Shown: piece by piece, positions 264 to 24,444 of the stretch | Numbering within the stretch: position 1 is the first letter of the stretch | Layout: the number at the start of each line of letters is the position of its first letter | DNA from: Isurus oxyrinchus | Taxonomy: Eukaryota | Reading direction: 5' to 3' | DNA: 64,000 nucleotides | Assembly: GCA_026770705.1 (NCBI GenBank) | Contig: JANJGN010000036.1 | Location: 2,480,001 to 2,544,000 of the forward strand | Notes under the pieces: model-generated | Told to the model about the DNA's origin: nothing | The model's input: the letters and a program-made list of their open reading frames with translations, nothing else | The model's database searches: none | Position numbers and translations under genes: made by a program

Positions 264-3200
264 CTGATTGTCGTTGATTCGGCCTTTCGGTTTGCCTTTT
301 CTCTCTCAAGCTAAAACTGGATACGGACAGAAATATCAAACACGTGTTAGGTCTTGTAAGTCCTGGCTCAGGCACCGGAAATAGTTAAGAGAATTGCCCA
401 ACGATTTAGAATCTAACTTAAACAGTCATAGAACATTTCTGAATACGCTATTTGAATCGGTGTTGGGGTTGAACTAGGTTTGACACACTGTAAAATAGAA
501 AAAGATTGTTGCTGATGAATTTTGCAAATGGTTCAGTTACTCACTTTTCATTGGCGGATTTCCTGCCTCGCTCTTCTGGAAGAAAAATGTGTAATTAGTT
601 ATTGAAAACTCCGAGAAGCGAATCACATTGGAGAAAAAATAAGTATTGACATGTCCCTTATAACCATTAATCCTCACCTGATCTGCTGTTTTTACGAATC
701 CAAATGGAAATAAGCACTGAGAGTAGAACCAGTACCAGCAGGATAGTTATTGCAACAGGAAGAGTCAGTTTGCACCAACCTACAGAGACAAAACATTCAG
801 AAACTGCTGCTGGGTTAAATCATTCTTACCTGGGGCTCTCTGAAGGGAAACGTAATCCAGTTAAAAAGCTGGAGCCTCAATCTCGGGTGTGAAAGTAAAT
901 TTTAAAAAAGTCAGTGGGACTGAGAGCTGAGAGTGGATGCGCAGAATGGATTCAATGGCGCTGCATTTGCTAATGGAGATGAAGTAACTAACAGCACGGC
1001 CAGGATTTTTCCACATGCTTAGTGTATCAGTATGTATGATGAAAAGCATCATACCAATGTCTTAGTTGAAAACTGAATCTTAGAATGATACGACAAAGAA
1101 GCAGTCTAACAGCATCTGTGGAGCGAAAGACAGTTAATGTTTCGAGTCCATATGACTCTTCTTCAGAGCCACGGACTCCAAGCGTTAACTCTGTCTTTCT
1201 CTCCACATATGCTGTCAGACCTGCTGAGTTTTTTTGCCAGCATTTTTTGTTTTTGTTTCAGATTTCGCAGTATGTTGCCTTTATTAAAGAAGCCGTCGAG
1301 TCGGCTCATCGTGCCTGACTTGGCTCTTTGAAATAGCAATCCAGTTATTCCTACTATCCCTGTTTTTTTCCCACATAACGTTCTGCATTTTCCCCATTAA
1401 GTATTTATCCGATTCCCCTTTTGAAAATTCCTATTGAATCTGTTTCCACGGCCCTTTCAGGCAGCGCCTTCCAGGTCACAACCACTCGCTGTGTAAAACA
1501 AAAATCCACTCATCTCCCCCATAGTTCTTTTGCTGATTCTCTTCGATGTGCATACCAATGGTTACCAAATCTCCTGCCACTGGAAACAGTTTCTCCTTAT
1601 TTACTCCATCAAAGGCACTCATGATTCTGAACGCCTCGAATAAAAATCCTCTTAACCTCCTCCGCTCTAAGGAGAAAAATCTCAGCTTCTCCAATCCCTC
1701 CACGTTAACTGACGCTAATTCTGATTAGAGGTCCCATTCTGGTCAATCTCCCTTGCATCCTCTACAAGGCCTTGACATGCTTCCAAACGAATAGTGCGCA
1801 GAACTGAGGACAATGCTACAAACTTGGCCAGCCGGAGGCTTATGAATTTTAAGCCTAACTTCCTTATTTTTAGTCTCGATTCCGCAATTAATAAGATCAA
1901 GAATTCCACGCCTTTCAACGGCCATTTCAGTTTATCCTTCCACCTCCAAGCTTTTATGGTATCAGAGAATGATTACAGCAAAGAAGGAGGCCATTCAGCT
2001 CATCGTGTCTGTGCAGGGTCTCTGCAAGAACAACTCATAGAACTCCGCTTCCCTGCTTTTCCGTGTCATCTTGCATTTTGTTTTCCTTTTGAGGTAATTC
2101 TCCAATTTTCTTTTGAGGGCAACGATTGAATCTGCCTCTACTACAGTCCCAGGCATCACACTCCATATTTTAACCACCCGCTGCACAGAACGGTTAATCA
2201 TCTTGTCGCCATAACTCCTTTTTTCCAATCAGTTTAAATCGGTGCCCTTCGGTTCCCAATCGCCCCGCCAATAGGAACAGTTTCTTCCTAACGGAGCTGC
2301 CCAGAAACATTATAATTTTGAGCACCTCTATCAAATCTCCTCTCAACCTTCTCTTCTCCAAGGAAAGCAGCCCCAGTTTCTCCAGTCCATCCAATTAATT
2401 GAAGTTCCTTATCCCTGGAACCATTTTAGAGAACCTGCACTCTCTCTCCCTCTTCACCTTATTCCTAAAGTCCTGTACCCAGAACTAGACACAATAATTC
2501 AGCTGAGGCCAAACCAGAATGTTGTAGAGATTCATCATGTTTTCCCTTTCTTTTGGACTCCTTGCCGTATTTCTAAAGGCCAGGATCCTCTACGCTCTAT
2601 GCGCGTCCCTGACATGAGCAATGAATTGTACACCTGAACCCTGCATTCTGGTCGACATGTTTTACGTGTGATAAACTTGAGCTGGTTCGAACAATCCAAA
2701 TTCAGTGAAAATTCAGATCCTTGGCTAAATGTTACGTATGATTGCTGATATCATGGATTTAAATTAAAATAGGTTTTAAGAGGAATTTGGAGATGATAAA
2801 TGAGGTTCCGGGGAGTAAAGGAAGAAACTGAATGAACGACAAGTCCCAGCAAACATGCCCATTTTAAGGAACAAATCCGCTTCTTGGCTGTTGTTTGCTC
2901 GCAAATCGCATGCAGTTCAGAACTGACCTCAGTCAGCCACATTACAAGACCCATTGCATGAAAAAGGCGATGCAAGCAGATTCAATCATGACTTTTAAAG
3001 GGGAAATCTATGATTCTAAAGTCTCTGCAAAAATATTAAGAGGAACAAGAAAGCATATACAAGAACAAATTCTATTCTGGTCTGAGGAAGCAAATTATTT
3101 TAGCATAATTTAACAAATGAACGCGCGACACACACACAAACACACACAGAGACACACAGAGGCACACGCACACACACACACACACATAAACACAGAAAGA

Positions 3201-4520
3201 CACGGAAGCACAGAAAGACACACGCACACAGAACGACACACATTCAGCTTTAGATTCAGTTGGAGTGCCGACTGTGAAATGAATATGTCCAACAGATATC
3301 CCTACATATTTGTAGATTATCGCTTGGAGGCCTTCAGTTCACTTTCGGCGGGATCTTAGAAGCTAGACAATTAGTACAATTAAAACCAAGTTGAATAGAA
3401 ACGCCATCGTACAGATCACTAACTCACTTGCCCATGCCCTTGCTGCCTTGGAGAACAATACGCTCCTTGTCCAGTTTTTGCTGAGACACCCCAGTTGAAC
3501 AATGCAAGTACAGAGACCGCCACTGCTGCAGGTTTCCCTGGATACCATGACGTGACTTCTGATGCTGTAGGTCCCGTCCTTCTCCCTTGTACCTGGATCG
3601 CTCGGTCCCTCAGTGAGCAGGCCGGAAATATTCCAGAAAATAGCAATCTGGTTGGAAGAAACTCCACTGACCAAACACAACAAGGGGACGGTTTTCCTCA
3701 AATGTAGCTCACCCGGCGGGACGAACACCAGCACAGCCGTCTTGTTGGTGGAACTGTCTGGACAGAGATAGGGACACAGTTAACCGTTAATTTGCTCCAA
3801 ATATTAATACTGTGCAGGATCTGAATTCATTTCACTTGCTCTCATACCTCCAACCAGTAGTGTCGCTCCATTCTGGAGCGGTGCATTGCTACGCATATGA
3901 GCACAGTAATAGGATCCCGAGTCATTCACCTGGACATTGCGCATTTCCAAAATCAATACATATTTGCTGTTGCCTTTTTCAGAAATAAACTTACAGTCGG
4001 CCCCCTGACAGGGAGGACTATCGATTAGTGTCGGTTCTTCACCCACCCGTTGTTTGTACCAGAAGTAGCTAGACACCAATTGCACTTCGTAAATGCAGTG
4101 ACAGGTTAATTCCACCGTCTCTCCGACTTCTGCTGTCATTATGAAGGAGATCTGAGACATAGAGGGCTCGGATTCTGTAACTAGAGAGATTATTGTTACA
4201 TTACCACTGATTACTGAGAGATTCGAGGAATGCTCTTGGAACAACATCGTCCGTAATTTAAGTAGGACCTCGTTAGTTTCTTTAATTATTTTTGGCTGGT
4301 CTAATTCTACAATTTGCCTTTTCTTCGCTTTATAGCAGAAAACAGAAAACAAACTCACATGCTCTGGTAAAATCCCTTCACCTAATCAACGGGTCACACT
4401 TTCAGCTTATTAAACACTGATTCTGACTGATTCCAATTTAAAATTCCCTCCCGCCTCTTGCTCACCATAAACCCGCAGCACTTGGAAAATGAGCATCAGA
4501 GATAAGGATTCCTTGGACAT
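264..4520 (-). CDS. Type-A non-rearranging V(J)-C1-TM Ig-superfamily receptor, copy A1 (open frame; 3' end probably runs off the left edge)
   Basis: Hand-spliced exons with GT/AG and compatible phases: leader 4520-4466 (MSKESLSLMLIFQVLRVY), V 4180-3848, C1 3757-3428, stalk/TM 779-678 (SWCKLTLPVAITILLVLVLLSVLISIWIRKNSRS), cyt1 575-545, cyt2 316-264. No stops in 904 nt. The paralog A3 has a further exon about 400 bp downstream, which for A1 would lie outside the window. Confidence 0.85.
678..779 (-). CDS. A1 stalk-Cys/transmembrane exon
   Basis: 102-nt phase-1 exon: WC, then about 23 hydrophobic residues, then RKNSRS. Exons of the same length occur at 14758-14859, 38428-38529 and 57600-57701. 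Confidence 0.85.
1270..2600 (-). mobile_element. Two CR1-type LINE 3' fragments in an A1 intron
   Basis: ORF remnants LEKLRFFSLERRRLRG and LEKLGLLSLEKRRLRGDLIEVLKI are typical of the CR1 ORF2 C-terminus. Confidence 0.75.
3120..3245. repeat. Degenerate (CA)n microsatellite
   Basis: acacacacaaacacacacagagacacacagaggcacacgcacac... Confidence 0.85.
3428..3757 (-). CDS. A1 C1-set constant domain exon
   Basis: VLVFVPP...VPLLCLVSG...WNISG...DGTYSIRSHV...LCTC are C1-set (Ig/TCR constant-like) motifs. Acceptor ctctgtccag, donor A|gtgagt. Confidence 0.9.
3848..4180 (-). CDS. A1 V-set domain exon with joined J-like G strand
   Basis: VELTC...YFWYKQ...DSGSYYCAHMRSNAPLQNGATLLVG gives the canonical B-Cys, C-Trp and DxGxYxC. 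Acceptor ctctctag, donor G|gtatga. Confidence 0.92.
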
Positions 4521-4730
4521 CTTGACGCGGTGAGTTTTCCCTGTTTTCGCTCTTACCAGTTTTTATTGCAGGCGGAGTGGACGCAGACTGACCTGAGCTC
4601 AGCGCCAGTTAGTTGCTCCCGTTTTGATGCGGTGGAAACTATGACGAGTTCTGCTGTGGAAAGTATGACACTATTTTGGGTGCGGTGCCCTGGTAAATGC
4701 CACATACATTTGTCATATTGTGGTCACTGT
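4521..4730 (-). promoter_or_regulatory. Conserved type-A 5'UTR/proximal promoter
   Basis: About 200 bp conserved upstream of the A1, A2 (17600-17810) and A3 (40619-40830) ATGs. Contains TGCGGT (RUNX-like, 4628-4633), GGAAA and a TGACG half-CRE. Function is inferred. Confidence 0.5.
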
Positions 4731-6029
4731 CACAGCGACCATTTGACTGGGTGTCTACAAAGAGTTTTAGTCGGTTGAGATGATGTCACTGAATTCTAAC
4801 TGTGAGGTGCATGTTGAATATTGAAGTTAAAGTTCAATTCTTTCTTAGGATTCGTGTGTCTGTGCCTGGGACAGCAGGTATTAACCATCCTAAGGGCCGC
4901 TTGAGAAGCTGGCTGTGCTCCGCCTTCTTGAATAACTGCAGCCCATGTGGTGTATGTACGCCCAGTGCAGTAAATTGGCAGTAAATGAACGGCGATACAG
5001 TTCCAAAACAGGCTTCCGCGTGACTCGGAGGGGAACTTGCAGGTTGTGGTGTTCCCATCAGTCTGCTGCCTTTATCCTTCTGGGAGATAGAGGTTGTGGA
5101 TGAGCAGGGCGAGCGCCGGAATTCAGAATGTGGTGCAATCGTGCTCAGTAAAATTCATTCTGTAAAGAGGTTGTACACGATTCATGATACAGCCTGCTTA
5201 ACACAGAGTCTGGAAAACATTGAATGACCGTCGCATTGAATGGACTGATTTGAAATTTATGGCGGCAGCCTCAGTGAGCTGCACCAGTATTTCCTGTGTG
5301 TAGATAGTACACATTGCAATTTCTTTGAGCTGCTGCTTAAAGTAACGCTTCATTTGAGAATCGTAGTGGGTAATAAATTTTATTCATATGCCGCATTGCA
5401 GATACAGAAGCAACTAGTGTCACGTCGACGAGGACAGTGTAAACGAGTTCAGTTGTGCATCAGCGACCTGTTCAGTTGCAGCAACCCTGGGCGGCAGACC
5501 CTGAAATGCCTGCGGTTTTACGCTAAATCCTTATTTTTAAATTTAGTTTTGCGCGCGAAGCGTCTCAACCTGAAAAAACAGGCAGGCCGCTGAGAGATTA
5601 CGGCTCGAAATTATTTTTCCATCGCAAGCCTAAGTGGACAGAATCTCAGACAGTGATTTCCGCCCCTCAATGCGCTTTGCACAGCCCCCGAATGCGCTCT
5701 GAGGAGCGCGCCTTTCTGAGACTCGCAGCAAAGAGCCGCGGTCACAGCTGCAAGGTTCACTGACTCGCTTCTTTATCATTCAAGGTCAAGCATTTTTGCA
5801 GTAGAGTTCAGACACTCAGTAAGGAACAACACTCTCTGCTCAATTCAGAACCCATTCTGCAATTAATTCGCTTGAAGATGAATGGAGCCCGCTCTTGTCT
5901 CCCAGATTCAGTTCCTCATTATTATCCCGAAGATTCTTGACATGGGTTCTTGAAGATTCTTGCAGTGAATTTGCTGCTTTGACTTTATAACCGGGTGAAG
6001 TTTCCAATGGGGGGCTCCCATGAAAAGAA

Positions 6030-6180
6030 TGATTTGACCCAGCAGCAGTTTCTAAGTGTTTTGCCTCTGTTAGGGTGACGCATTTCGATCTTTTGCCACA
6101 GCTGTCACGATGATCCGGTTTCTATCATGCATTCTCATAAGGATCTGGTTTCATTAAAGCAGCTGATCGAGTGAGTATTC
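6030..6180 (+). pseudogene. Inverted, degenerate type-A TM exon with flanking splice regions
   Basis: aatgatttgacccagcagcagtttct...ctctgttag|...gcagctgatcga|gtgagt aligns with the reverse complement of the A1 TM exon and its flanks. Contains stops and frameshifts. Confidence 0.6.
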
Positions 6181-6189
6181 ACACCCTCC

Positions 6190-6790
6190 TGTCCCTGATT
6201 ACAGTACCTGAATTTAAGGTAGTTAATCAAAGGGGTGTGACTGTCTCCTGAAACACAGCGTCCAGGTAACTCTCCCCCTCCCTGAGGTGTCGCAGTGTCC
6301 GAAGCTCAGACACCAGCTCATCAACTCTGAGCCAGAGTTCCTCGAGCAACCAATATTTGCTGCAGATATGGTCACTAGGAGTCACAAAGGGGTCCACCAG
6401 CTCTCAAATTATGCAGCTACAACACATCGCCTGGCCCTGCATCTCTATTGTATTTTATTAATTTTTCAATTTGTTTTTCAGTTTCCTACCAGTCTTTAGT
6501 TTATCAACCTGTAAAATATTTCTCATATTTAACTTTCATCTAAAAGCAAATTAGAATAGAGACTCAAAATACACTCTTTAAAACAACTGGAACTCCCTCT
6601 CTCGGTAGATTTGAATCTGACGCGTTAGGCCTCCGATCCTGGGCCCCAGCAGTCACCTTTAATCTGAAATCAGTTTAAAATAGGTAGTTTAAACTAACAG
6701 TTACTTACCAACCAATGAACTTATGGTTTTCCCTGTGATGTCACTTTGATTTTTTACACTCAGCGACGGTGACTGCAGAGGACACTCTTC
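6190..6790 (-). mobile_element. CR1 LINE 5' fragment (ORF1 N-terminus)
   Basis: Minus-strand translation MQGQAMCCSCII*ELVDPFVTPSDHICSKYWLLEELWLRVDELVSELRTLRHLREGESYLD resembles the zinc-finger/coiled-coil start of CR1 ORF1. Confidence 0.6.
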
Positions 6791-7491
6791 GCAGACTCAT
6801 TCGTCTCACTATCATTCTCTTGATCCACATCTGTATTTCAGTAGTATTAAAACTGTGTTCTCTCTATCTCTCGCCATCATTTTCATTCTATCTCTTTCGC
6901 GCTATCTCGCTATGTTTGTCCCGTATATACAATGTTTTATAAGATGGCTGCTCTTTCTCTCTCTCTATTTCTGCCCTTTATAAACAGTGTCCTATATAAC
7001 TCTCTACCATTCTCTCTCTGTGCCCCATTTAAACGGCGCGTCAAATGATCTTTGTTCTATCTCTTTCGCTATCATTCTCTTTTTACCTCTCTCTCTCACA
7101 ATTTCTCTCTCTAAATGCATTGTTATCCTGTTTAAACACTGCTCTATAAGATCTCTGCTTTCTCTTGCCACCATTTTCTCTCTCTATCACTTCTCCCTCT
7201 TTCTATTTCATTCTTTTTCTCTCTGTTTCAATGTTGTTCTATAAGATCCCCTTCTCTCTCTTGCTATCAATGTCTCCATATTTCTCTCTGTCTTTTTCCC
7301 TCTCTCTATCTATTTCTACTTCAGGCCTGTCTGAATTCTGTTCTATAAGAACTTTGCTTTATTTCAGGGTGATGAAATATGCAAAAATATATTTTCGTTT
7401 CCTGGTGAACTCAAATATTGAGGTTTTCCAAATTTCACTTGCTTAATCGATTCCACGAAGTTTTCTTTAAATGAAAGGGTTTTCTTTGCAG

Positions 7492-8534
7492 ATTCTCCAC
7501 TCCCCACCACCCGCAGTTTGCTGATTTCCGGGAGTGTGTCGGTGGCAGCGATTCTGCTGTTTGGGGATGATTCTTGTGGCTGCAGAAGGAGCTGCAGGAT
7601 CCGGCAGACAGGTGGCGATTGTTGCGAGAGTCTGTAACTCCGAGGCACTCTCAATCTATCCGTTTATCAAAGTGTTATTGACACTTTCAGCCAGTTCAGT
7701 GTGAAATGTAGCCCTTAAAGCTCCATTTAAATGTTGCTTTCCAAGAGGCGACATGAACTTTGATGAGAAACAGACAGTTTCCAGAGGACACGAACAGAAT
7801 AAAGACTTTCAAAAATGGAAATGTTGCCAACACCCGTGGATACATCTCACTGATTTTTTATCTAAGGTTTAACATTCATAATTATTGTTATTTGTTTCTA
7901 GAAAACTTTGAGTAGCGAGCACTACAGGATAACAGAAACTGGACATCAGTTCCTCGAGTACAGAAGATTAAGTCGTGATCTAATCGAGGGGTTTAAGATG
8001 ATTAAAGGATAGGATAGGGTCGATAGAGAGATACTACCTCCTCAGGCAGAGGGAGTAGGAGGGGCAGGGGGCAGGTGTGTCGGGTAGGGGCGGTGGGCCG
8101 TCGAGTCCAAGGCGACAGAACTTTACAATTGGAACCAGAACGTTCAGGCGTGATGTCAGGAAGCTCCTCTCACACAAAAGCGTGTGGAAGGCTGGAACTC
8201 TCACCCCTCCCCACTCACGCCTCCCTCCCCCACCCCCCCCACCCCCAACCAAAAAAAAAACTGTTGAGGCTGTGGCTTCAATTTGAAAAAAAATCAAAAC
8301 TGAGATTGATAGATGTTTTGGGGGTGAGGAGATTAACGATTATGGAACCTAGGTGGGTCGATGGAAATTAAGATACTCACCGGACCTGATCTAATTGAAT
8401 TGGCAGGAGGGTATGAATGGCCTCCCCCTATCCCAATGATGATGGTGTTTGTTATGTTAATGGATTCGGTTTTTATCTTTTATCCACAGACACATTATGC
8501 CTGCTTGGCGTTTAAGAACGATCCCACACTCTGA
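7492..8534 (+). pseudogene. Type-B receptor remnant B1 (TM and cytoplasmic exons only)
   Basis: TM exon 7492-7611 (stalk Cys->Arg; hydrophobic core broken, FGDDSCGC); cyt exon 7748-7806 (donor GT lost); last exon 8490-8534 THYACLAFKNDPTL*. No leader, V or C exon found upstream. Confidence 0.75.
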
Positions 8535-11500
8535 TAGGAGAGGAAAGAGGGAGAGAGATCACGGTCTGCTTCCCGAATATGACGTGTTGTGGAAAGTTTC
8601 CTCTGTTGGCCGGGAAATTTCGAATCCCAACCAGTGCAAATTCAGGCGCATTTTTGTGATGTCGCCCAGAGCGGGAACTGAATAATATCTCAATGTCCGC
8701 TATTCTAACGATGAAGTATCGCCTGCAGTTCCAATCCACCCTCTCCGGGTTTCTGTTACTCGTATCAGTGTTTATCATTGCATTCTGAATCGTTATGCAG
8801 TATGTGACAAGATATTATTCAAATAGGTTTCACAATGCATCTGTGCTCAAGTTACCTATATAGTAAAACAGCTTTATAACCAATGTTAGCTCTGCGATTA
8901 CCGTTTTTATTTGAGCATTCAGACCAGTTGCACCCAGGGTAATTCTGAGGCCAATTTAAAAATACATTTATGGAGCGAATGTAGGCAGGAGAGAAATAGG
9001 GTTATGGAATGACAGATACTGGATGGGAATTTGGGCTGCGTTGATATGAAAACTGCAGTGTTAGTGGACCCCGAGCCTTCAGTGATTGGGTCCTGAGAGT
9101 GAACAACGTTACATTTACTCGTGAAAGAAGAATATTTATATATCATCCACTCTTTTGATAATACAGTTGGTGGATTTTTCCGACTAAAATCACGGTTTCA
9201 AAGACACTGAAAGCGCAGCAGGAGGCCATTCGTTCCGTCACGCCTGTGCCAGCTCTTTGGATGTTCCCTTTAGCCCCACACAACAGCTGTCTCCCCATGA
9301 CCCTACGAATTTTTCCTCTTGACGCACACATGCCAGTAAATGTTAGCATCTATCCTGCTTACAGCACCACCCAGCGGCTGTGACTAAAATAGGTTTTACG
9401 CCGATGTTGATAATTCGCAAACATGAACACAATTCGATCCTGACATCGGAAGGTCTTTCAAATACGTGAGTAAATGCTGGTTCACTGAGATGATGCGATT
9501 TACTTCCATTACATCTTTAACAATATAAATATTAAAAGCTGGATTGGAAGCCCTTGGTGTGCTGATTAATGGATATTTTTGTAGGTGATTAAGCTTTGAT
9601 CTGCAGAACGTCTTGTGATTCCAGTTCCTCGCGGGTAGAAACATCGCGAAATTGACACCAGCGCATTTTACTGTAAAGATTCATTCTGCACAGATACTTC
9701 GAGAGTATTTCCAGACACTTATTAAAAGATGCAGCTGGAAAGGCTCATTCTGCTAAACACAGCTCAGCGGCCCAGCAGGCTTCTGTCCTCCTCAACCTGC
9801 AGGTAAACAATTGTTTCCTTACAAAAAAGGCAGGAAATCCAGCGAGCACTTCCCTATTCTCCTTACCCAGAGAACCACTCCTCGTGCTAATCACCCCGTG
9901 TGTCATAGACCTCCAGATATCAGTCGTCTTAATATTTGGACCGATTAACCCGTCAGGCACATTGGAGACTTGAGTTCCATTTGGCTGGATCTGGCAATCT
10001 GCCTGATCATGGGTGATGGTTAGGAAATATATATAGCTTAAGTAATTTATATGTGCATTTGGGTTCCCTCTGTATAAAATAGATGTTTCAGTTCAGTTTT
10101 ATTTTATATATATTTTTTTTTATTTGAGTGTTAAAATGTGAAACCTGGGATATAGTTTCAGTTTTGTGTAGAGGCAGAGGTCCGAAGCACTGTTTGTACA
10201 CTTGCATTTGCAATTGGTTTTTTGACTCTTAAAAAGAAGGTAAATCAAACACAAGAGACGAAAAACCTTTGCTGTTGCGTAGCAATAGGGGACCAGAGAG
10301 GCAGGGCTCACACACACGCACACAAGCACACACACACACACACACACACATACACAAACACACATACACAACAGAGAGAGAGATAGAGTGACAGAGAGAG
10401 AGAAGGGTGGGGTTGGGAGGAAAGTTGGGAGGAGAGAAAAGCAGCAGTTTCAGTTCACTAGGGAGGAGCTGCCAGAGAGAGGCAAGGCAGCAGAGGGACA
10501 GATAGCAAGTCCCAAAATGATTTTGAAGCCAAGACTCCAGAGATGCAGTCTACTGGGAGAAGGAGCGACAGAGAGCAGGTTTTCCAAAAGAACCAACAGC
10601 TCCTAAGGCCAAGGAGCGAGACAGGAACAGAAGAATGTCCCAAGGTGGCTTTCTAGCCAAATGAAGGACAGTAACACAGAAAAGGTCCTGCTTCGTGAAA
10701 TTAAGAGTGAGGGGCAGAGCAAGGTTCCAAACTTTAAGCTTAAAGAGAGGAAGTTGCAAGAGGCTAATTTAATTCGAAACATGCTTGAGACGAGGCAGAA
10801 TGTCCAAGCAGACAGCTAATGGTCTGTAACTATTTACTATGGGAATGTGAATCAGTGCTGTGCTGTTGATGATAGAGTTAGTGAAATAGAATTTGTGGAG
10901 GAACGATTCATTGCAAGTGGTGATCCTGTGGAGAGAAACATTGGAAGGAGAGTCGAAGCCCTGGAGGTGGACACTTGCGGACGGCGTTGGGGAGAAAGCA
11001 TCGGTTTGGGAGAAGTTCTCAAAACGAGTTCTTGGAGAGGGGAGATTGGAAAGCCTCTTCTGAAAGATGAAAATCAGTGAAATTGATTGTCTCACGGTGT
11101 GACACACGCCTTGTCGGGCGGGAAGTGTGGGAGCGTGGCGGTGGGATTTGAAGAGAGTCCCATAGCATCTGTTTGGGGCGTGGGGCGCATAATGGGTCGA
11201 GTTGTTTGGATATTTTCTATATCCCCAATTTACCATGCAAATTTACCTGTGGAGTTACAGGAAGGAAGCTCTGTGCAGGCTGTTTCTTAACTTCAGCCCC
11301 TCACGTGTCAAAAAGGGCAGCTGCCAGTGAGGGAGAAACACCATCAGACACTCACTGGGCTGCCACCGAGAAGGTGGTTGAGGAACTGAATGACCCAATT
11401 CGCATCCAAGTTTGAGAATTTTACAAACGAATCAATAATCTGCCAGATGCTAGTTGACAGGAAATAGTTAACGAATCCTTCAGAGACCCAGTTAAACTGG

Positions 11501-11540
11501 TTTGAAATTTACAATGACGTGCTTTAAAGGTGGATTTATG
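8440..11540 (+). repeat. Segmental duplication block (B 3' flank plus an LTR-like repeat), paralogous to about 24350-27520 and partly 62500-63280
   Basis: Colinear similarity, e.g. gaagccaagactccaga, cagctgccagtgagggagaaacaccatcagacac and atggtttgaaattta, in all three places. Confidence 0.75.
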
Positions 11541-11569
11541 GCTTTAGGCCATATTTTTAAAAATATTCC

Positions 11570-12290: not shown

Positions 12291-14220
12291 CAGCGTGGTT
12301 ATCAAACCCACATCTTCGAGAAAGATTGAAATGAGCAACATAGTCAAAACTGACCACGAGAAATCACACGAAAATTCGCTGTCTGACAGGTGATTAAATA
12401 AATGGAGCTTATTTTATACTCCCTCCACATGTTTAAATGATCCCTTTGCTCCTGCAGAGACCTGATTAAAATATCTGAATCGCTCGACAACTAACATCCC
12501 ATTAACTGGGTACCTTATAAAGTGGGAAAATGGGTAATTGAATCTCCCGCCTAGGCTGATTTAACTCACCTCAGGGCAGGCCAGAGAATCCACCCAGTTT
12601 TTAATGGCATTTAAGTACCAAAGTGTGCCACGTACTGTTTTGAAAGAGATTGAACAGTATTGCAATACATCACCAAGTGGTGCAGCCACGTTATATACCT
12701 CATCATGTCGTATGAATAAATTATACATTTTTTTTGGAAAACTGAAGTATTACACAGTCTGTAGCGGTTTGCTGTCCAATCAGCTAGTAATTGGCATTTA
12801 TCCCAGTGTGCATCCCTGGCAACTGCAAGTAGAGCACAGAGTCCTATGTCACGGTTGATGTCCGATATCTTTCTCCAGAAGGACCGCTGCCTTTCTTTGC
12901 ACATTTGCTTGACAAAGACACATTGCACCAATTAATCTCCCCTCTTCTCCATTTAATCACTGGCTGATCATTTATCTTCATTACCTCCCCACCACCCACA
13001 ACACACCCCCACGCCACCATCACCCCCCCCCCCCACCCCACCCCCGCTGCCATTTGTTTGAAACTTATAAAGTGAGTAAACGTATCGAGCTCTGGTCTGA
13101 TGCATTAAGTCAGTGACACTCATAGAAAAACGAAGTGTAATTCAGGTCTTCAGAAGACAAAGACTTGTCTTGTAAATGCGAACTCTATTTGTAAATGTGG
13201 TGAGCAACATACAATATTGGAAGCAAGTGACGTGGTTTGCATCATATGTAATGTCAGAAATTAAGGGTCGCGTAAGAACGTTTATAAATGTTCATGAATA
13301 ATATGTAATTTAGTAGAAAGAACGACTTTTCCTCAAACTCCCTCACCCCCTTACAAAGCCTCATGCCTCCCACCCGAACAAGTTTTCAAAATCATTTGAA
13401 GTTTTGCAGATGGATTTGCAAGGTTTTATTTATCGGTTCTGATTTCAGTGAAATATTGCTCACTTCCATATCTCCCCCTTGCAAATTACACCAGGTGTAG
13501 TCCAGTTGAAATGAGTTGCGAGGGGAAAGTTGACTGTTTGGCCGTCAGCTGGCTGCTGAAGTTTGGAAATTGCACCGTGAATGCAGTGGATTATTTGGCA
13601 AATTCTGTCTCCTCCACAATTCATCAGAGTAAATCCATCCCGGGTTCCCATCTGCGACACGCCTTGTTTTCTGATCTCTTTTCCAATGCAGCAAACTCCA
13701 GGGAGGTAAAGGGAGGCCCTCCCCGAGACTGGGAAATATATTAAACATTAACATTAAAAGCAAGTAAAAGACAGGTCAGGTAATCTCTCCAACATTTATC
13801 AAAGTCTTTCCTGACTTTTCTCTGCGTTCTGTTAAACAATGCTCAGGTCTATCTTTACGCTGAACTTGTGGCTGCTTTAATGTTCCTGCCATTTGACATT
13901 GATACTATCCTCCCCCTTGGTGAATCCCTGATGGTTTCCCCTCTGCCCGTGCAGTAGCTCCAGTGTGCCCGCAGAGGGAGGGTTTGTATCACTTTAATCA
14001 AATGATAGAGAAAAACGTTTACGGAGATGAGGATTTGGCCCTTTTTAATTCATTCATTCACACAGAGACAAAAGAACACCAATTGCAACCAGCCCTGTTG
14101 CTTCTGACATGACATTAGGCTTTTCACCCCCAATGCCAAATCAGTTCCAGAACTGATATTTAATTTTTGCCCTTGGAATTATTTTTCTCTTTCGGTATTT
14201 ACCTCAATTCCATTTAAAAC
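12280..14220 (+). repeat. Segmental duplication block paralogous to about 46740-48740 (partly 35390-35730)
   Basis: Colinear matches such as gattgaaatgagcaacat, gctctggtctga.gcattaagtcagtga and ttttcacccccaatgccaaat. Confidence 0.75.
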
Positions 14221-14627
14221 TTAATATTGACAGCGGAAACTGAGCCAAAAACTCACACATCGACACGCGTACACACACAGAGTGACACAAATAGGCACAA
14301 AAATACACACGCACAGACACGGAACGACACAGGCGCGCACATAAATATCTATATTATACACACACAGACACATACACACAAACAAACACAAAAAACTGGA
14401 TTGGAACAAAAATGCAAAGCAAGTGTTAGGTCTTGTAAATCCTGGCTGATGTGCCAGAAAGAAAAGTGCAGAAAATTGTCGAGGGGTCTTGGAATCAAAC
14501 TTGAAAGATCATGGAACGTGTTAGCATCTATCAATGGAATCAGTGTTGGGGTTGAACTGGCTTAGACACAGTGTTAAATATGGAGAGGGCGTTCGGGATA
14601 AACTGTTCAAATGGCTCAGTTACTCAC

Positions 14628-17599
14628 TTTTCATTGTGGGATCTCTTGTCTCGTTCTCATGAAAGGAGAATCTGTAATTCGCAATTTAAAACTGCGAGAA
14701 CGGAATCACATTGGAAAACCAATTATGAAAATGTCCCTGATAAGCAGTGATCCTGACCTGATCTGCCGCTTTTATGTGTCCAAATGAAAATGAGAATCAA
14801 GAGTGGAACTGGGATCGCTGCCACCATTCTGACAACATTAAGAGTCGGAATGCAGCATCCTACAGAGAAAAAAAAATAGAAAATGCTGCTCGGTCAAATC
14901 ATTATTTTCTGGGATTCCCCCCATGGGATACCTGACCCAGTTAAAAGTTGGTGCCTCAAAAAGCCAGTGTGACAGATCGCGGCGAGTGGACGCACAGAAT
15001 GAAATATATGAAGCAAGGTTTTCGAGTTGAGATCAATTGGTGGACAGCACTGTCAGGATTGGTCCAAGCTTATAATGTATCAGGATGAAAAGTTCTTACT
15101 AATGTCTACCTGGAAACTGAACTGAGGAATCACAGACTGAACCAACACGGAAGGAGGCAGTTCGGCCCATCATGTCTGTGCCAGCTCTTTGTGTAAAATA
15201 AATCAACACATTTTCACCTTTGGTTCTCTGTCGGTGAAAAGAGCTTCTCCTTATTCACTCTATCAAAACCATTCATGATTTTGAGCATCTGTGCAAAAAG
15301 TTCCCGTTAACCTTCTCTCCTGTAAGGAGAACAAGCCCAGCTTCTCCTTTCTCTCCACATTAACGGGCGCATTCTGGTATATGTTCAAAGTACCTACTCC
15401 TAGGGCACAACACTCCAGCTGGGCTCTGACCAGGCTTTATAAAATGCAAGTTTCCCTTCTATATGATTCCTCCATTATTTAAGCCGAGGTCTCCCAATGT
15501 CTGTTAGTGACAATCACAACTTGTCTTGCCACCTTCAGAGATTAATGTATATGCGCTACCTCCCAATGAGAGTTCAAACCGATCAGTTCCAAATAACCCA
15601 ACTTCAATGCCGGTTGATAACCCGAGGTAGAGTTAAATCCGAATTGCTGATATCACCAACTGATATTAAAATTAATCTGCATTTTTCCAGGTAAATGCAG
15701 ATTGATGAAGTACATTCCGCGAAATGAAGATGGAGACAGGGGGAATTGAGCGGTCGCCACGTCCCTGCAGATGCATGGCTTTTCCCCAGCTACCTTTCTT
15801 CACTGCTTTCTGCTCGTAATCGTATTCAGTGTGGAACTAATCTCAAGACTGTTCCTCATTCACTGCCTGAAATTACGGGGAATCTGACTGAATTATAACT
15901 TTCTTCAGGGATTTCGGGTTATTTAAGGAGATTTTATGAAGGAGAAAGTGTTACAGGTTATTGGGAAAGAGTGCAATTAATTGAATATCCCCTTTCTGTG
16001 CTGTATCACTCTGTAACTTTAAGATGTCGCATAGTAACATAAGGCGAGTCAAGAAAGTCTCCCACTCGGAAACAATAAGTTATGCCAAGACATTGAATGC
16101 ACTTTTTACTTACATTATAGACAGACACAAACGCATGCATACATATGTATATAAGATATATGTATATGCACAAACATACACACATAGAGACACACATACA
16201 CACATATTCATACGCACACATATTTCCAGACAGGCATACACACCCGTACATTATATATATATATATATATATATATATCCATGGTATTCTGTGGATGTCC
16301 TGGAATGATTAATTCGGGCTATTATAAACTACCGAATTACTCCAACCGATACTTTGAATAAAAGCCTCCATTGAATATATCACCAGCTCACCTGTCCCTG
16401 CCTCTGCTGCTGTGGACAACGTGCTCTTGGTCCAATATTTTTTTCTGGAGACCCCAGTTGAACAATATAAGTGCACACAGCGTCTCTATTCCAGGTTTCC
16501 CTCGTCACCATGACGTGGTTTCTGATACTGTAGGCCCCGCCCGCCTCACTTGTACCGGGATAGCTCGGTCCCTCGGTGACCCGGCCGGAAATATTGTAGA
16601 AAATAGCAGTCTGGTTGGTGAAACACCACTGACCAAACACACTAAGGGGGCGGTTTCCCTCAAAGGCAGGTCACCCGGCGGGGCAAACACCAGCAAAACC
16701 GTCTTGTTGGTGGGACTGTCCGGACAGAGTTTGCGGGACAGTTAACGATTAATTTGCACGATATGTTAATGTTGTGTACGACCTGAAGTCATTTCAATTA
16801 CTCTCTCACCTCCAACCAGTGGAGTCGATCCATTCTGGAGAAGTGCATAGCCATCCTTCTCAGCAAAGACAAGCTTCAAATTTGTCGAGGTCGCAGGTTT
16901 AGAAGGTGAACGCATGGATTTCGGAAAGTAGCATCATTGTACTCCACCTCATTTATTCTGTGAAGTGGTTGTACAAGACTTTTGATAACATCTGGCCCAC
17001 ACATTCACATGGAGATTGTGAATTTGTTGAAAGAACTCATATTCGCTGTTAACTATTTTTGGAAATAAAAATACTATCGGCCAACTGAGAAGGAGACATA
17101 TCGACAAGATTCGTGTCTTCCCACACACACTGTTTGTACCAGAAATAGCTCGGCACCAATTCCACTTCGTAAATGTAGTGACAGATTAATTCCACCGTGT
17201 CTCCCACTTCAGCTGTCATTATGAAGGGACCCTGAAACAGAGAGGTCTCGGATTCTGCAACTAGAGAGATTACTGTTACATTACCACAAGTTATTGAGAG
17301 ATAGGACGCAACCGCTTTGAAACACATCGCGTTAATTCAAGAACAGTCATATCATTATTTTCAATTAGTCTTGGCTAGATTAATTCTGGAATTTGCGGGG
17401 TTTTTTCACTTTATGGGAGGAACCAGTAAATCAACTCACATGATCGGAGAAAATCCCTTCACCTGAACACTGGGTCAAAATTTCAGCTTAGTTTCCACTG
17501 TTTCTGCTGATTCACTTTAAAATTTTCACCCGCCTCTTACTCACCAGAAAGTCGTAGCAGTTGGGAAATGAGCATCAGAGGTAAAGATTCCTTGGACAT
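14628..17599 (-). pseudogene. Type-A receptor pseudogene A2
   Basis: Leader 17599-17545. V from 17260 has a stop at 17049 and its D-F strands are replaced by foreign DNA; the G strand is kept at 16810-16862. C1 16719-16392 has acceptor CAG->CGG, a 2-nt frameshift, Trp->Tyr and Cys->Tyr. TM 14859-14758 (CCIPTLNVVRMVAAIPVPLLILIFIW). cyt1 14658-14628 has lost its acceptor. Confidence 0.85.
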
Positions 17600-19854
17600 C
17601 TTGATGCGGTGAGTTCTCCCTGTTTTCGCTCTCACCAGTTTGTTACCGCTGGTCGAGTCGCCGCAGACTGACCTGAACTCAGTCCCAGTGAGTTGCTCCT
17701 CTTACAGATGCGATGGAAACTACGACGAGCTATGCTATTGAACAGATGACACATTTTAGGTACGGGTCCTGGTGAGTGCCACATGCATTTAACACACTAA
17801 GGTCACCGTCTGTGCGTCACGGCTGTCAAGTAGCTGAATGTTTTAAAGAACTTTACTGGGCTGTCGTTCACGGGGGCGGCGGTGGGGGTAACAGAATACT
17901 AATTCTATGGTGGATCCTCAATGTTGCAGTTAAAGATTGATTCATTCCCGACATGAAAGCCTCAACGGCAAGGCAAACATATATTAACCATCTCTAATTG
18001 CTTCTTGAGAAGATGATGGTCAGCCGCCTTCTTGAGCTGCTGCATGCCACGTGCTGTAGGTACACTCACAGTGCACTTAGGAAGAGAGTTCCAGTATATT
18101 GACCCAGTGACAGGGCGTCACGTGGCTTAGACAATGCTTGCAGGTGGTGGTGATCCCATGTAACTGTTGCCCTGGTAGTTCAAGGTTGTAGAAGTCGCAG
18201 GTTTGGAAGGTGAACGCCTGGTATTCAGAAAGGAGTATCTTTGTACTGCATATAATTTATTTGGTGAAGAGTTTTTACAAGATTCTTGATACACTCTGGT
18301 TAAGACCGAATCTGGGAAACGTGGAATGAAATAGGCTTGGATTGATTTGTATGTGAATTACCAGCACCTTATTCTCCAAAACACAAGTTATGTAGACCTA
18401 GAGTGGAATTCTAATGGGACAAACACGTTCATTCACGACACATATAGAGAATCTTAGTGAACGAATCTCTTTCGAATTCAGTTCTTCTCCTTAAAAGTTC
18501 CGTGCAGTGCCCTCTTTTCTGTTAAGTCTCATTGACTAGGTTTTCAAGTGTCTTAACCTGTGATATAAAACACCAATGGCGATTTACCTGAATCCAGTGT
18601 ACTGAGTTCGTTTTAGAATTCTATTTGCCAAGGACTTGATTGATCCCGTGATGGGAGTTTCAAACAATAATACATCTTTCGCTTTGTGTTTTAGGCTAAG
18701 TGCGTTCACAGCAGTTCAATGGAAAATTCAGTGTGCAGCTACGACGTGCAACAAGCTGTCAAGCATCTTTGATGTTACAGTTTATAGAGTTACATCGAAT
18801 TCACAGCACGGAAACAAGACATTCGACCCGAATGCTCGTGCTCATCTTCATGCTCTGCACGACCCTCCTCCCGTTCTTGATCTCACTACAAAATCAAACA
18901 CTTTTCTTCCTTTCCTCCTCGAGTGTTTGTTCAGGTTCCCACTTAAATGGATCTCTGCAATAGCTTCAAACATTTCCTATGGGAGAGGGTTCCACATTCT
19001 CTCCACTGCCTGTTTAAAAAAAGATTCTGCTGAATTCCCACATGGTATTAATGCTATTAATGACCCATAGTTACCGAGGGACATAGGAACACGGGGTTAG
19101 GCCATTGCGCCCTTCGAGCCTGCTCCACCATTCAATAAGATCTTGGCCGATCTGGTTTTAGTCTTGAACCCACTTTCCTGTCTGCCGCACACAGGCCTTG
19201 ACTACCTTGCCGAAAAAATCGGTCTAACACGGCCTTGAATAAATTCAAAGACCCAACATCCACTGCATTCTGGGGAAGAAAGCTCCACGCATCGACGACC
19301 CTTTGGGTGAAAAATAATCTCCTCATCTCTGTCTTAAAATGGAGACCTCTATCTTTGATCCATGCCCCTAACTTTGGCCACAACAGGAATCATCCTCCGG
19401 GTATCCGCCCTATCAGGGCCCCTCAGGAATTTGCATGTTTCGATAAGATCACCTTTCATTCTTCTAAACCCCAATGGGAATTCCTGAATTCTCCGAGATT
19501 CGCGGTTGTATTTATTGATGACGTATATTTTTGAAATCCTGCCGATGTAGAATCATCTTCCCCTCCGTCTGCCGAAATAAACCATTTCGTCACTTTAAAG
19601 ACCTCGATCAGGGTACCCTTCAAACTTCCCCCTTTTTAGAATAAAAGAGCTCCAGCCGGTTCATTCTTTGCTGTTAGAAATAAGCTCCCTATTCTGATAT
19701 CATTCGTGTGAAACATTAACTGCACCTTTTCCAGTGCCTCAGTATTCATTCTAGAATATGCAGAACTGTGTTCTGCACTCCAGGTGTGGCCTAAATAAGG
19801 TATTGGTCTTTGGTGAAAAAACATTTGATGAGTGCGCTACGGCACTTTGGCCTG

Positions 19855-19885
19855 TAATAAACAGGAAAACCGCAGATAGCTGTCT
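19855..19885 (+). promoter_or_regulatory. Candidate ETS/RUNX/GATA motif cluster upstream of B2
   Basis: acaggaaaaccgcagatag contains CAGGAA, AACCGCA (TGCGGTT) and AGATAG, about 170-185 bp upstream of the B2 ATG. aaacaggaaacc is retained upstream of B3 (about 28548). Motif match only. Confidence 0.35.
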
Positions 19886-20046
19886 ACATCGACACCATTT
19901 TCCAACCCCTTTCGTGTATCTATGAATAAACACAGAAGGTCATTCATCTGCACATTGTACATCTCCTTCACACGGCGCGATCGAGAACGAGTTCTCAGTG
20001 AGTTTCGGGTCGGGGCTCAGAGTCTGATCGCCTGAAGTTGCGGAAA

Positions 20047-23000
20047 ATGAGCTTCCTCGCTGTGTGTGCATTATCCCATCTCTTCCGGGGTGAGATATCT
20101 TAACATGTTCAGATAGAGTTGAGTAGGGATTGGACAGAGTAAATAAGGAGTAACTGGCAGGAAGGCCTAAAATCAGAGCGACACAGATTGAATAGAATCG
20201 GCCAGAAAACCAGAGGAGGAGATGAGAAGATTTTTCTTTAACTAAGCGAATTGTTGTGACCTGGAAGACTCTGCTTGAAAAGGCGATGGCAGCAGATTCA
20301 GTAGGAACTTTCAAATGGGGATTTGGATAAATACTTGAAAAGGAAACATTTGCAGGAATATGGGGGAAGGAGCGGGCGGGAGAGTGGGGCCTAAGTGGAT
20401 AGATCTTTCAAAGTGCCAGCACTCTTAAGGGCCGAAAGGCCTCCAACTGTAGTGTGCGGTTCTATAAGATGAAGTTCAGTTATCAAGTTCTACGTACAAA
20501 TAGAACGAAAATCGTCAACAACGTGTAAAATGTGCCTCCGTCGGGATCAATGGATGGGACTCATTCGAAATGTAACATCTCCTGCGATAAAAGATAATAG
20601 TTGGCTCCATTGACACTATTGGCGATTGAGCAGAGAAAAGAGTTTCAAGGTGATTGTTAGAGTAAGTTATAATCTCCTCATCTTGAACAAAATAAAGCGC
20701 CCAAAGCAGACGGAGAAGACCAGGAAACAAAGGATGGATGAAAGAAAAATAAAAAAGTTGGAAAATTTAGAATTTGAAGCAGCTCTTTTAATGTATTAAC
20801 TTCATAGCGTTCCCAAGCCTGCACCCCAGTGATTAAACCAGATTTATTGCTGAATGAACTACTACTGGGTCCTTGGAATGACAGGGATAAAAACGCGCAA
20901 ACAATCCATAGCACGCGATTTTTCGATATGGGCGATTTTTAAAAAATGATTGTGCCTCCTCCCTATTGGGGTATATTCTCCGCAGGCTGGTCTCAAGAGA
21001 AAGGGTGTGCGGGTGCGGGTTGACGAGCTGCACCATAACCCGAGGTAAACCTTGTTTATTTCTCTCTCTTTCAGTTATTGTGTCTCAGCCTGCCTTGTCC
21101 CAGTCTCCGCCGGTTCAGACACTCCCTGGGGGGAGTCGCGCTAAACTGAGCTGCCACACGGAGAGACCAGTAATTGGCTATGTCTTCTGGTACAGACAGT
21201 CGGATCGAAACGACATGAAGTTGTTTTACAGAGCGCGTAAGCACGTCCCAGCTGTGGGGAGGGTTTCAAGCAAGATTTCTGAAAAAGAGGGCTGTAATTC
21301 ACTGCTGATTGTGGATACACGGAGAAATGATTCTGGAATGTATTACTGTGCAATCCGCAATTACACAAACATGGCCCTAACATTCGGAAATGGCTCCCAG
21401 TTAGTGATTACAGGTAAATTTAATCATTATTCCATTGAATTGGGCACTTCTACGGAAAATAAACGTCTCGGGCTTCAGCTGTTAATGGGATTTCTGTTCA
21501 ATTTGTCAAATTTAGAGGGCTCCCCCACCATATTCCTCCTCACCCCGCCGGAGGATGAGATTTCTTCGATGGAAAGGGTCCCGCTGTTGTGTTTGATCAG
21601 AGGCTCGTCCCCCGATTCCTTTCCCGTCCGCTGGAATGTTTCCGGGCGGGTTACCGAGACACAGACCGATTCCGCGACAATTGAGTCGGACGGGACCTAC
21701 ACCATCAGGAGTTACACCAGCATCTCGGCGGAAACTTGGAGCAGCGGCGCTCTCTGTACTTGCGCCATTCAAATCAACTCCAGTGAAAATCTTCTCAGTG
21801 CAAGTGTCGCATCTCAGAGAGGTAGCTATTAACAGTGACCGTTTACAAATCTATTTAATGCTGATGGCAGACTTTGCAATTTTCCAAGTTAGAATTGTCC
21901 ATCTTTCCGTGTGTGTCCATGTAACATCATTTTATCATTGACCTATCGCAGGTCTCTCAATCTTTGAAAGCTAAACTTTCTGAAATTCTAACTCCATCTG
22001 TTCTCTCTACCCAGAGAGTTATGGATGTGCAGTCGCTGAGATAGATTTTTGTACACTAAGGGAGCAAGTGATGCGGACAGGGCGGGAATGTAAATTTGAC
22101 GTACAAGATTAGCCATGGCCTGATTGAATGGCGCATCAGCTTTGAGGGACCGAATGCTGCTCCGATTTCTTGTGTTCTTTTTGCCTAGGCATATTGACAT
22201 GGTTGCATGCTACTGGCTGATTTGTCAGTGTTTAAACTGAAAGGTGTGATTACATTCCCAGTGTCGCACTTTGTCCCGCATGCTGTGTGCAGTTATCCAT
22301 TCATCTCTCTATCTACTTAACATGCACAATATTTCTGTCCACCACAGTTAAACAGTGAGGTGTAAGACATTTTCTGTATCTGTCTGTCCATCTGTTCATC
22401 TTTCTATCTATTTCCCCCTCTCTCTCTTTCTCTTAATCAATCAATCTATTTCTGTCCTAGTGCAGTTTAATATACCTGGCCTATCTACCTGTCTGTTTGT
22501 CTGTCTGACTCTGTCTTTCTCTCTATCTCTGACCTCCTCTCGCTCTCCAACTGCCCCTCTCTGTCCCTGTCTTTCCCTGTCGTTCTCTCTGTTTTTGTGT
22601 TGCTTTCTGTCTGTCTCGTTCTCTGCGCTAATGATTTATTTATTTTTCCCTCTATTTACCTAATTCATTCCCCTCTGATTACTCTGAATATCTCTACCGT
22701 ACTGAAATGGTGCAGCAAAACGCATCTATATCCATTTATCTATCTACATATCTCACTCACGCTCTCTCCACACCTCTCTCCCTGTCATTCTCTCTGCTAC
22801 TTCCTGCCACTCTCTCTTGCTGCATGTCTCTCTGACCCTAAATCTCTGGCTCTATTTTTATCCTTTTCTTTCCAATTTAAGCAGTTCTGTATAAGCTGTC
22901 AACACTTTCTATCCACCCACCTATCTATCTATCTATCTATCTATCTATCCGTCTATCTGTCCATCTTTCTGTCTGTCTGTCTATCTATCTCCCTCTGTTT

Positions 23001-24444
23001 GTTCCCCACCTCCATTTCTCCGATTTGAACGGTCTCTCTCCCTCTGTCTCTCTCTCTCTCTCTCTGCTTCTGTCTCCATCTCTCTTTCACTATATCTGAC
23101 GATTTATCTCTTTATTTCTACCCTAGTCAATCTGTTTTGAATCATATATCTGCTTTCTTGGTCAGTCACTCTCCATCTTTGTCTATCTTATTACTTATGT
23201 CCTGTTTATTCAGTATAAATTCTCTGCTCTCTCGCTCTCCATCCCTGCATCTATCTACCTCTGCTCTCCATTTCTCCTCACTATTTCTATCTCTTTCCAT
23301 TTCTGTCCCCTTTCATCATTATTCTCTCAGATCTCTGCTCTATTTCAGGATGATAAATTTAACAAAAAATCTATTTCGGTTTGTGGTTGAAATCAAACAT
23401 GTAAATTGAAAACATTTATCTTGTTTAATTAATTTCAGAAACTTCTTTAAACGGCAGTTTCATATCTCTTTTTTTTGTTGCAGATTCTCCGCTACCTACC
23501 ACCTGCAGTGTCCCGCTTTCCGGGGTTGTGGCGGCGGCGGCGCTTGTCCTTCTGGGAGTGATCCCTCTGGCCATGAGAAGGAGCTGCAGGAACCGGCAGA
23601 CAGGTAGCGACTGTTGGGACACGCTGTTTTCCGCCGCGCTCTCAGTCCATTCATTTATCAATTGGAGACTGACACTTTCAGCCGTTTGGTTGTGAAATGT
23701 AGACAGTTATGAGCAGTTGAAATTTTACTTTCTAACAGGAAACATGAACAATGATGAGGAACTGACAGATTCCAGAAAACAAAGAGAAAACAAAGAGGTA
23801 AATGAATGGATTTGTTGCTGCCACTACGCGTGGATGCTTTTCACCTACTTTTAATTCAAGTTTTATCATTCATAGCTATTGTTATATGTGCCTTGGCAAC
23901 TTTGCCTAGTGAGCTCTACAGGATGGCAGAAACAAGGCTTCAATCCCTCGAGTGCAGAAAATTAAGGGATGATGTTACTGAAGGTTTTATGAAGATTAAT
24001 GGATCTGGTAGGGGAAATGGAGATGTACTATTTCCCCCTGGTAAGGTTGGGAGGGGCGGAATCTAGAACAAGGGGCAGACCGCTATAATTAGTGCAGCGC
24101 ATTCAGGGTTGATATCAGGAAGCACTTTGTCACACAAAAGCCAGTGAAAATCTGGATCTTTCTCTCCTCAAAAGGTCTTGATGCTGCGGGATCAATTGGA
24201 AATGTTAAAACTGACACTAATAGATATTTGTTGGGTAAGGGGATTAAAGATTATAGAACCAAGGTGGGTGGTTGGATGTTATGATACAGATCCGCCATCA
24301 TCGAATTGAATAAACGGAAGGGGCTGAATGGCCTCTTCCAATCCATAAGATGATGGTGCTGGCTATTTTAATAGATTCTGTTTTTCCTTCTCTCCACAGA
24401 CACTTTACGCCCGATTGGCCTTTAAAGAGGATCTCACACTCTGA
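20047..24444 (+). CDS. Type-B non-rearranging VJ-C1-TM receptor with ITIM/ITSM-like tail, copy B2 (complete, 303 aa)
   Basis: Exons 20047-20089 (MSFLAVCALSHLFR), 21075-21413 (V+J), 21516-21821 (C1), 23484-23603 (DSPLPTTCSVPLSGVVAAAALVLLGVIPLAMRRSCRNRQT), 23739-23797 (GNMNNDEELTDSRKQRENKE) and 24400-24444 (TLYARLAFKEDLTL*). All GT/AG, phases 1,1,1,1,0, total 912 nt, no internal stop. Confidence 0.9.
21075..21413 (+). CDS. B2 joined VJ exon
   Basis: AKLSC...VFWYRQ...DSGMYYCAIRNYTNMALTFGNGSQLVIT: a canonical V plus the FGxG J motif in one exon. Confidence 0.93.
21516..21821 (+). CDS. B2 C1-set domain exon
   Basis: PTIFLLTPP...VPLLCLIRG...VRWNVSG...DGTYTIRSY...ETWSSGALCTC. Confidence 0.92.
22370..23340. 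repeat. CT-rich and (TCTA)n low-complexity intron tract
   Basis: ctatctatctatctatct and ctctctct runs. Similar tracts at about 6850-7330 and 57990-58640. Confidence 0.8.

Follow-up and report, generated by a model that had tools for sequence, protein, structure and literature searches.

Candidate disulfide-linked pairing of two chain types in a germline VJ-C1 receptor cluster of the shark Isurus oxyrinchus

Disulfide bonds between stalk cysteines link the chains of the T-cell receptor (TCR), CD8 and CD28, and CD94/NKG2 and Ly49 are likewise stalk-disulfide dimers. Among receptors that do not rearrange, chicken PRARP, the subject of a 2019 study, is said to consist of a pair of VJ-C1-transmembrane (TM) genes with a tail tyrosine motif, to be expressed in lymphocytes and to form disulfide-linked homo- and heterodimers, and Ohta et al. 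(2019) reportedly treated VJ-C1 genes of tetrapods. Here we analyze a 64,000-nucleotide stretch of the Isurus oxyrinchus genome (the window; positions 2,480,001-2,544,000 of contig JANJGN010000036.1, here C36, of a 4.98 Gb assembly), in which a preliminary description had proposed that chains of two types, A and B, form a TCR-like heterodimer through membrane-proximal cysteines. Two genes in the window, A1 and B2, are intact and represent two lineages of non-rearranging VJ-C1-TM receptors, and with moderate confidence we read their products as A+B heterodimers joined by a predicted stalk disulfide. This reading draws on gene structure, cysteine conservation, the age of the two lineages, an asymmetry at the V-V interface and the tail motifs, from which the pairing itself is inferred.

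The shark A/B family is probably the PRARP family, as its architecture, its two gene types and its distribution match. C36 carries PRPF3 (the only locus) together with one of three APH1 loci. We take PRPF3 and APH1 to be markers of human 1q21, and PRARP presumably lies in the region matching human 1q21-23; one lizard relative of the shark proteins is labelled APH-1A. Both chains have Pfam V-set and C1-set domains above the cut-off, V and J share a single germline exon (21075-21413 in B2, with an FGNG motif found in 20/20 distinct B genes; 4180-3848 in A1, with a degenerate LQNG), the A and B lineages form a pair of related gene types, and the tails end in TLYARL (B2) and PLYASL (A1), which resemble immunoreceptor tyrosine-based inhibitory or switch motifs (ITIM, ITSM), though neither fits the consensus perfectly. 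The closest relatives of the window proteins are all from sharks and rays, and further relatives occur in bony fish, amphibians, reptiles and birds, the listed bird matches having no C1-set Pfam entry. Orthology to PRARP is deduced indirectly, since no sequence of that name was retrieved: none of the bird, reptile or amphibian relatives bears it, and no chicken row stands among the 120 of 199 matches listed. The shark cluster differs in its host, a cartilaginous fish, in having TM-Arg and tyrosine-less variants, and in size, with at least 124 cassettes, 61 of them intact, versus reportedly two genes in chicken. PMC10751288 lists PRARP instead as a VJ gene in the major histocompatibility complex (MHC). 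The 33 MHC class I matches in the assembly include some on contigs C21 and C16 and none on C36, and MHC linkage of the cluster was rejected on that ground.

The A/B family resembles TCR alpha/beta and gamma/delta in its V-C1-stalk Cys-TM layout, with a stalk cysteine in both chain types, in a V fold whose nearest neighbors are TCR V domains, and in complementary V interface residues. It differs from them in multiplying as whole genes instead of segments, in the uncharged TM segments of A1 and B2, where a TCR has basic residues for CD3, and in long tails with tyrosine motifs of their own, TCR tails being short and free of signaling motifs; the split V(D)J segments that RAG joins in a TCR were not found, V and J forming one exon in all 61 intact models, although no search was made for signal sequences. 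The description as TCR-like holds for shape but not for diversity or signaling. CD8 alpha/beta shares with the shark genes a germline VJ domain, a stalk cysteine, an arrangement as two linked genes and, in 19/20 distinct B chains, a juxtamembrane cytoplasmic cysteine, whereas the shark chains have a C1 domain in place of the long stalk, carry tail tyrosine motifs and are multigene. Paired natural killer (NK)-type receptors (teleost NITR, KIR, Ly49 and CD94/NKG2) likewise form birth-and-death clusters with inhibitory (tail Tyr) and activating-type (TM Arg, no Tyr) members. The NITR ectodomain is of V-I type, while those of KIR, Ly49 and CD94/NKG2 are of lectin or C2 type, and we know of no paired NK-type receptor with a two-chain, Fab-like V-C1 ectodomain. 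The UrIg and UrIg2 genes of sharks are also non-rearranging, antigen receptor-like VJ-C1 genes, and PMC12227049 and PMC10751288 describe disulfide-linked dimers, in the former case VJ-C1 homodimers. According to these papers, they have 4 or 10 Ig domains and lie in the MHC or the Ig/TCR complex, whereas A and B have one C1 domain each, where a UrIg gene would have at least three, and share their contig with PRPF3 and APH1. The A/B family is thus not TCR, CD8 or UrIg; judged from its sequences, it appears TCR-like in shape and paired NK receptor-like in signaling.

A1 (minus strand) is an intact 8-exon gene with a leader (4466..4520, ATG at 4520, in agreement with the N-terminus of protein P0019), a V exon with the J-like end LQNGATLLVG and a Pro at the V-V interface position (3848..4180; Pfam V-set, 1.5e-10), a C1-set exon (3428..3757; 2.6e-08), a stalk-TM exon without a charged TM residue (678..779) and four tail exons, of which the first two span 264..575 (575-545 and 316-264) and the last two, still in frame and ending in PLYASL, fall outside the window on its left side. 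The A1 V domain has an additional Cys pair in the CDR2 (second complementarity-determining) region; across 3428-4180, three extra cysteines are found, one of which replaces a C1 Trp conserved at >90% in the family. B2 (plus strand) is an intact 6-exon gene with a leader (20047..20089), a V exon with the canonical FGNG and a Met at the V-V interface (21075..21413; Pfam V-set, 6e-13), a C1-set exon (21516..21821; 2.4e-10), a stalk-TM exon again without a charged TM residue (23484..23603) and tail exons at 23739-23797 and 24400-24444 (23739..24444), the last ending with TLYARL and a stop; its V domain has one extra Cys. Contigs from four runs that we guess to be RNA (at most two samples, and uninformative on level, strand or cell co-expression) span the B leader-V (20086 to 21074), V-C1 (21411 to 21514), C1-TM (21819 to 23482, GT..AG) and TM-tail junctions. 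They also cover A exons, the A1 V exon at about 85-90% identity; the A C1-TM junction is absent among the joints listed, with 63 further joints unlisted. Within 23598-24398, some of these contigs skip B tail exon 1, which suggests short-tail forms.

The stalk cysteines were as previously described. In A1 the codon is TGC on the minus strand (774-772), within the TM exon 779-678, and its SWCKL context arises only when the C1 exon (end 3428, phase 1) is spliced onto the TM exon, a junction that recurs as TWASWCKL in the basking-shark A1 orthologue model. A candidate micro-exon near 828-845 was ruled out, as it would leave a 50-base intron and the homologue models splice directly. The B2 codon is TGC at 23504-23506, inside PTTCSV. 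The cysteine is retained in the broken genes A2 (GCCIP, 14854-14852) and A3 (GLCRP, 38524-38522) and is replaced by Arg (CGC, 7512-7514) in the B1 remnant and by a stop (TGA, 57696-57694) in the A4 remnant, each as first reported. However, the window does not follow a rule that live genes keep and dead genes lose the residue, because the broken A2, A3 and B3 all retain TGC.

Conservation of the residue was examined in the wider cluster. Four genome searches gave 125 candidate cassettes at 0.58-4.10 Mb of C36, and 124 cassettes over 3.4 Mb were modelled from DNA, with four near 4.03-4.10 Mb left out; both numbers are lower bounds. Taking as intact an open leader-V-C1-TM model with splice sites, 26 of 57 A models were intact and 31 broken, as were 35 and 32 of 67 B models, where four cassettes of a divergent B sub-lineage (two checked) were scored as broken without TM only because the reference exons fell short. 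Collapsing intact genes at 95% identity left 17 distinct A and 20 distinct B. The stalk Cys is present in 25/26 intact A and 35/35 intact B genes (16/17 and 20/20 distinct), in 14/14 A and 14/14 B homologues selected because they include a TM exon, and, from sharks to birds, in 87/92 rows with the canonical C1 Cys and a TM segment in a 150-row alignment. Chance does not account for this, since Cys is the most conserved stalk column in both chain types, the commonest letter of the adjoining residue reaching only 4/17 in A and 14/20 in B. The earlier argument that dead copies shed the cysteine stands for B (13/19 distinct dead copies keep it versus 20/20 intact, p=0.008) and falls for A, where all 19 distinct dead copies keep it.

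An unpaired, membrane-near extracellular cysteine kept from sharks to birds is most simply read as forming an inter-chain disulfide, and such a bond is likely on this comparative evidence. Alternatively, the stalk Cys might bond the spare cysteine of a CxC motif in C1 or an unrelated partner, or stay free, leaving the chains monomeric. A third C1 cysteine is indeed present in 16/17 A and 20/20 B distinct shark genes, and a PRARP monomer has reportedly been seen in chicken. Yet the stalk Cys persists in 28/32 rows of relatives that have no third C1 Cys, so the two residues are not tied, which speaks against an intra-chain bond; together with conserved V-V interface residues (Gln at Trp+3 and the Tyr preceding the second Cys hardly vary in either chain type), this makes the absence of an inter-chain link very improbable.

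The stalk Cys alone cannot separate heterodimers from homodimers, and the preference for A+B comes from elsewhere: the Trp+9 asymmetry, two old and co-located lineages, similar gene numbers with an A-with-B unit, and coincident tyrosine loss. Nine residues after the conserved V-domain Trp, shark A proteins have Pro (22/22) and B proteins Met, Leu or Ile (23/24). This contrast parallels the Pro of VL and V-alpha versus the Leu of VH and V-beta, and among the comparison rows of our tree alignment, Ig light chain-like sequences had Pro and TCR-like sequences Leu. In the tree, one clade (SH-aLRT branch support 94) unites shark A chains with proteins of lungfish, sturgeon, turtle and alligator, with B and its relatives apart (82); one outgroup row was skipped, and a tree without the outgroup agrees. 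Both lineages thus extend to bony vertebrates, and both types lie on one contig in manta ray, sterlet, snapping turtle and Chinese alligator, as judged by equally long contigs or consecutive accessions. A model of the basking-shark B chain (P0001; mean predicted local distance difference test, pLDDT, 81.6) had TCR V domains as its best match (Z 16.7, rmsd 1.6 Å, 108 residues), whereas an A-chain monomer model from a 21-row alignment reached a pLDDT of 34.7 and was set aside unused.

Fifteen head-to-head gene pairs were found in the cluster, every one of them A-with-B and 2.3-2.6 kb from ATG to ATG, so the ancestral unit is a divergent A/B pair. Both genes are intact in four pairs, including those at C36 631.5/636.0 kb and 673.2/677.6 kb, and broken in two; in the other nine, A is broken and B intact. 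The preliminary description had supposed that A1 and B2 are divergently co-transcribed, which did not survive: the head-to-head mate of B2 is the frameshifted A2, 2,448 bases away, that of A1 is the B1 remnant, and an interval of 15.5 kb, occupied by B1 and A2, separates the ATG of A1 (4520) from that of B2 (20047), leaving A1 and B2 neither head-to-head nor with a shared promoter region. It could be argued that heterodimers form only between fixed cis partners, making A1+B2 one co-evolved pair or no pair at all, with no combinatorial repertoire. The recurrence of an A1-type/B2-type block in several copies at a spacing of about 17.5 kb fits this suggestion, as does the adjacency of tyrosine-less genes. 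Nevertheless, for several intact B genes the gene list, itself a lower bound, contains no intact A closer than 100 kb, and within either type the interface residues hardly vary, a uniformity that would permit free mixing; we consider fixed partnerships improbable. Most intact genes no longer have a head-to-head mate, so a common promoter need not dictate which chains pair.

The tails suggest how A+B heterodimers might signal. The tail Tyr is absent from three of three intact distinct A genes that carry a TM Arg (C36 981,937; 1,686,670; 3,958,822), whereas 13/14 without the Arg keep it (p=0.006); A2 (13651-17599) and A4 (57577-57729) in the window are also of the TM-Arg type. As the gene at 981,937 resembles an inhibitory neighbor, this switch appears to have evolved at least twice. 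Among the 33/35 intact B genes whose tails were read, only two lineages have no tail Tyr, and each neighbors a Tyr-less A (C36 2,315,712/2,320,403 and 3,958,822/3,972,855); in one pair B carries a TM Arg, and in the other A carries Arg and B Asp. In the arrangement we propose, the V domains of A and B would pack against each other, and so would their C1 domains, in the manner of a Fab or TCR, with the variable loops of both chains contributing to one binding site and the stalk cysteines locking the pair. As each chain has one tyrosine motif and both TM segments are uncharged, an A1+B2 dimer would offer the two phosphotyrosines needed by an SHP-type phosphatase and so be inhibitory. Pairs in which both tyrosines are missing and a TM residue is charged would be activating by way of an adaptor. 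We guess at an NK-like role in surveillance.

Several observations weigh against A+B pairing. The stalk Cys is missing from one of the 26 intact A genes and from 5/92 TM-bearing alignment rows. The interface Pro is absent from ray A chains and from some lungfish and sturgeon chains. Coincident Tyr loss amounts to two independent cases, with a rough chance estimate of about 0.04, and several Tyr-bearing B genes, B2 included, adjoin broken TM-Arg A genes. A1 may itself be a poor test chain given its three extra cysteines and its C1 Trp-to-Cys change. In the CDRs, dN/dS (nonsynonymous to synonymous rate) is 0.89 (A) and 0.88 (B), above the 0.43 of C1 yet not above 1. Positive selection on the CDRs is accordingly unsupported; specificity would come from germline duplication, as variation is concentrated in the CDR-equivalent loops.

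Further points concern homodimers, in which the stalk Cys would mainly give AA and BB dimers (compare CD8-alpha-alpha, CD28 and UrIg), with A and B as independent series duplicated together and heterodimers optional. One stalk Cys per chain suits either pairing, and A and B scarcely differ in their C1 interface letters (the Asp in SD.G and the Arg in YxIRS), so homodimers are fitted equally well there. Many B genes have outlived their A mate, as in the 9/15 head-to-head pairs in which only B survives. Chicken PRARP chains, moreover, are said to occur as monomers, homodimers and heterodimers. Sharks themselves have disulfide-linked VJ-C1 homodimers in UrIg and UrIg2, according to PMC12227049. 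Against this, homodimers do not readily explain the Pro versus Met/Leu asymmetry at the V-V interface, the composition of every head-to-head pair as A-with-B, the joint retention of both lineages from rays to reptiles, the matched tail Tyr loss of neighboring genes or the presence of one tyrosine motif on each chain, and we regard predominant homodimerization as rather unlikely. An inter-chain stalk disulfide with a V-A/V-B site is the best reading of the sequences and is partly supported.

A further, speculative extension, which we think doubtful, is that sharks possess a third, RAG-independent two-chain recognition system, in which some 17 A and 20 B chains, all distinct, would combine without restriction to give several hundred V-A/V-B sites held by disulfides, inhibitory and activating, on NK-like or lymphoid cells, a living model of a pre-RAG heterodimeric VJ-C1 receptor. 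Ig and TCR are predicted to descend from a VJ-C1 receptor that did not rearrange, and UrIg and UrIg2, the shark relics for which structures have been solved or modelled, are homodimers. A heterodimeric membrane form common to sharks and reptiles would, if true, uncouple two-chain V-V recognition from rearrangement, and the cluster would be a candidate paired inhibitory/activating receptor system of cartilaginous fish. Chicken PRARP has probably already revealed the disulfide dimer as such, and novelty is limited accordingly. No account of the shark cluster was found in the literature searched, though Fu 2019, Ohta 2019 and Flajnik 2023 or their supplements may cover it. Relatives of the cluster carry the database labels 'Ig kappa-like' or 'Mem5-like', and such genes can therefore contaminate Ig gene counts.

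The remaining features of the window are mostly decayed members of the same family. The B1 remnant (7492..8581, plus) comprises a TM exon and the last tail exon, and a leader, V and C1 were looked for there without success. A2 (13651..17599, minus) has an interrupted V, a frameshifted C1 and no tail Tyr. B3 (29415..32063, plus) is broken by stops and frameshifts, A3 (35635..40618, minus) by one stop in V and one in C1, and A4 (57577..57729, minus) is a remnant TM exon. An open frame of 278 residues at 60165-60998 (minus) resembles a fragment of a LINE-type reverse transcriptase.

Near-identical blocks of the cluster recur at 1.95-3.85 Mb of C36, reflecting recent segmental duplication or uncollapsed haplotypes, and for the B2 V-C1 region the sequences at 2.50, 2.70 and 3.40 Mb share 99-100% identity. 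The divergent B sub-lineage (C36 2,049,449; 2,982,492; 3,351,788; 3,722,737) has P0044-P0049, proteins of rays and sharks, as near relatives; both copies that were checked have open V and C1 exons, no TM exon was located in the sub-lineage, and B3 in the window looks related to it (29415-30134). In the A genes at C36 734,227 and 1,093,446, both canonical V cysteines are replaced by Ser, with the extra CDR2-region pair retained. The TM exon is skipped in some shark A models (P0021, P0027), which suggests secreted forms. The cytoplasmic Cys of B chains stands directly after the TM segment (RRSCR; 23484-23603 in the window and other B genes) and may be a palmitoylation site.

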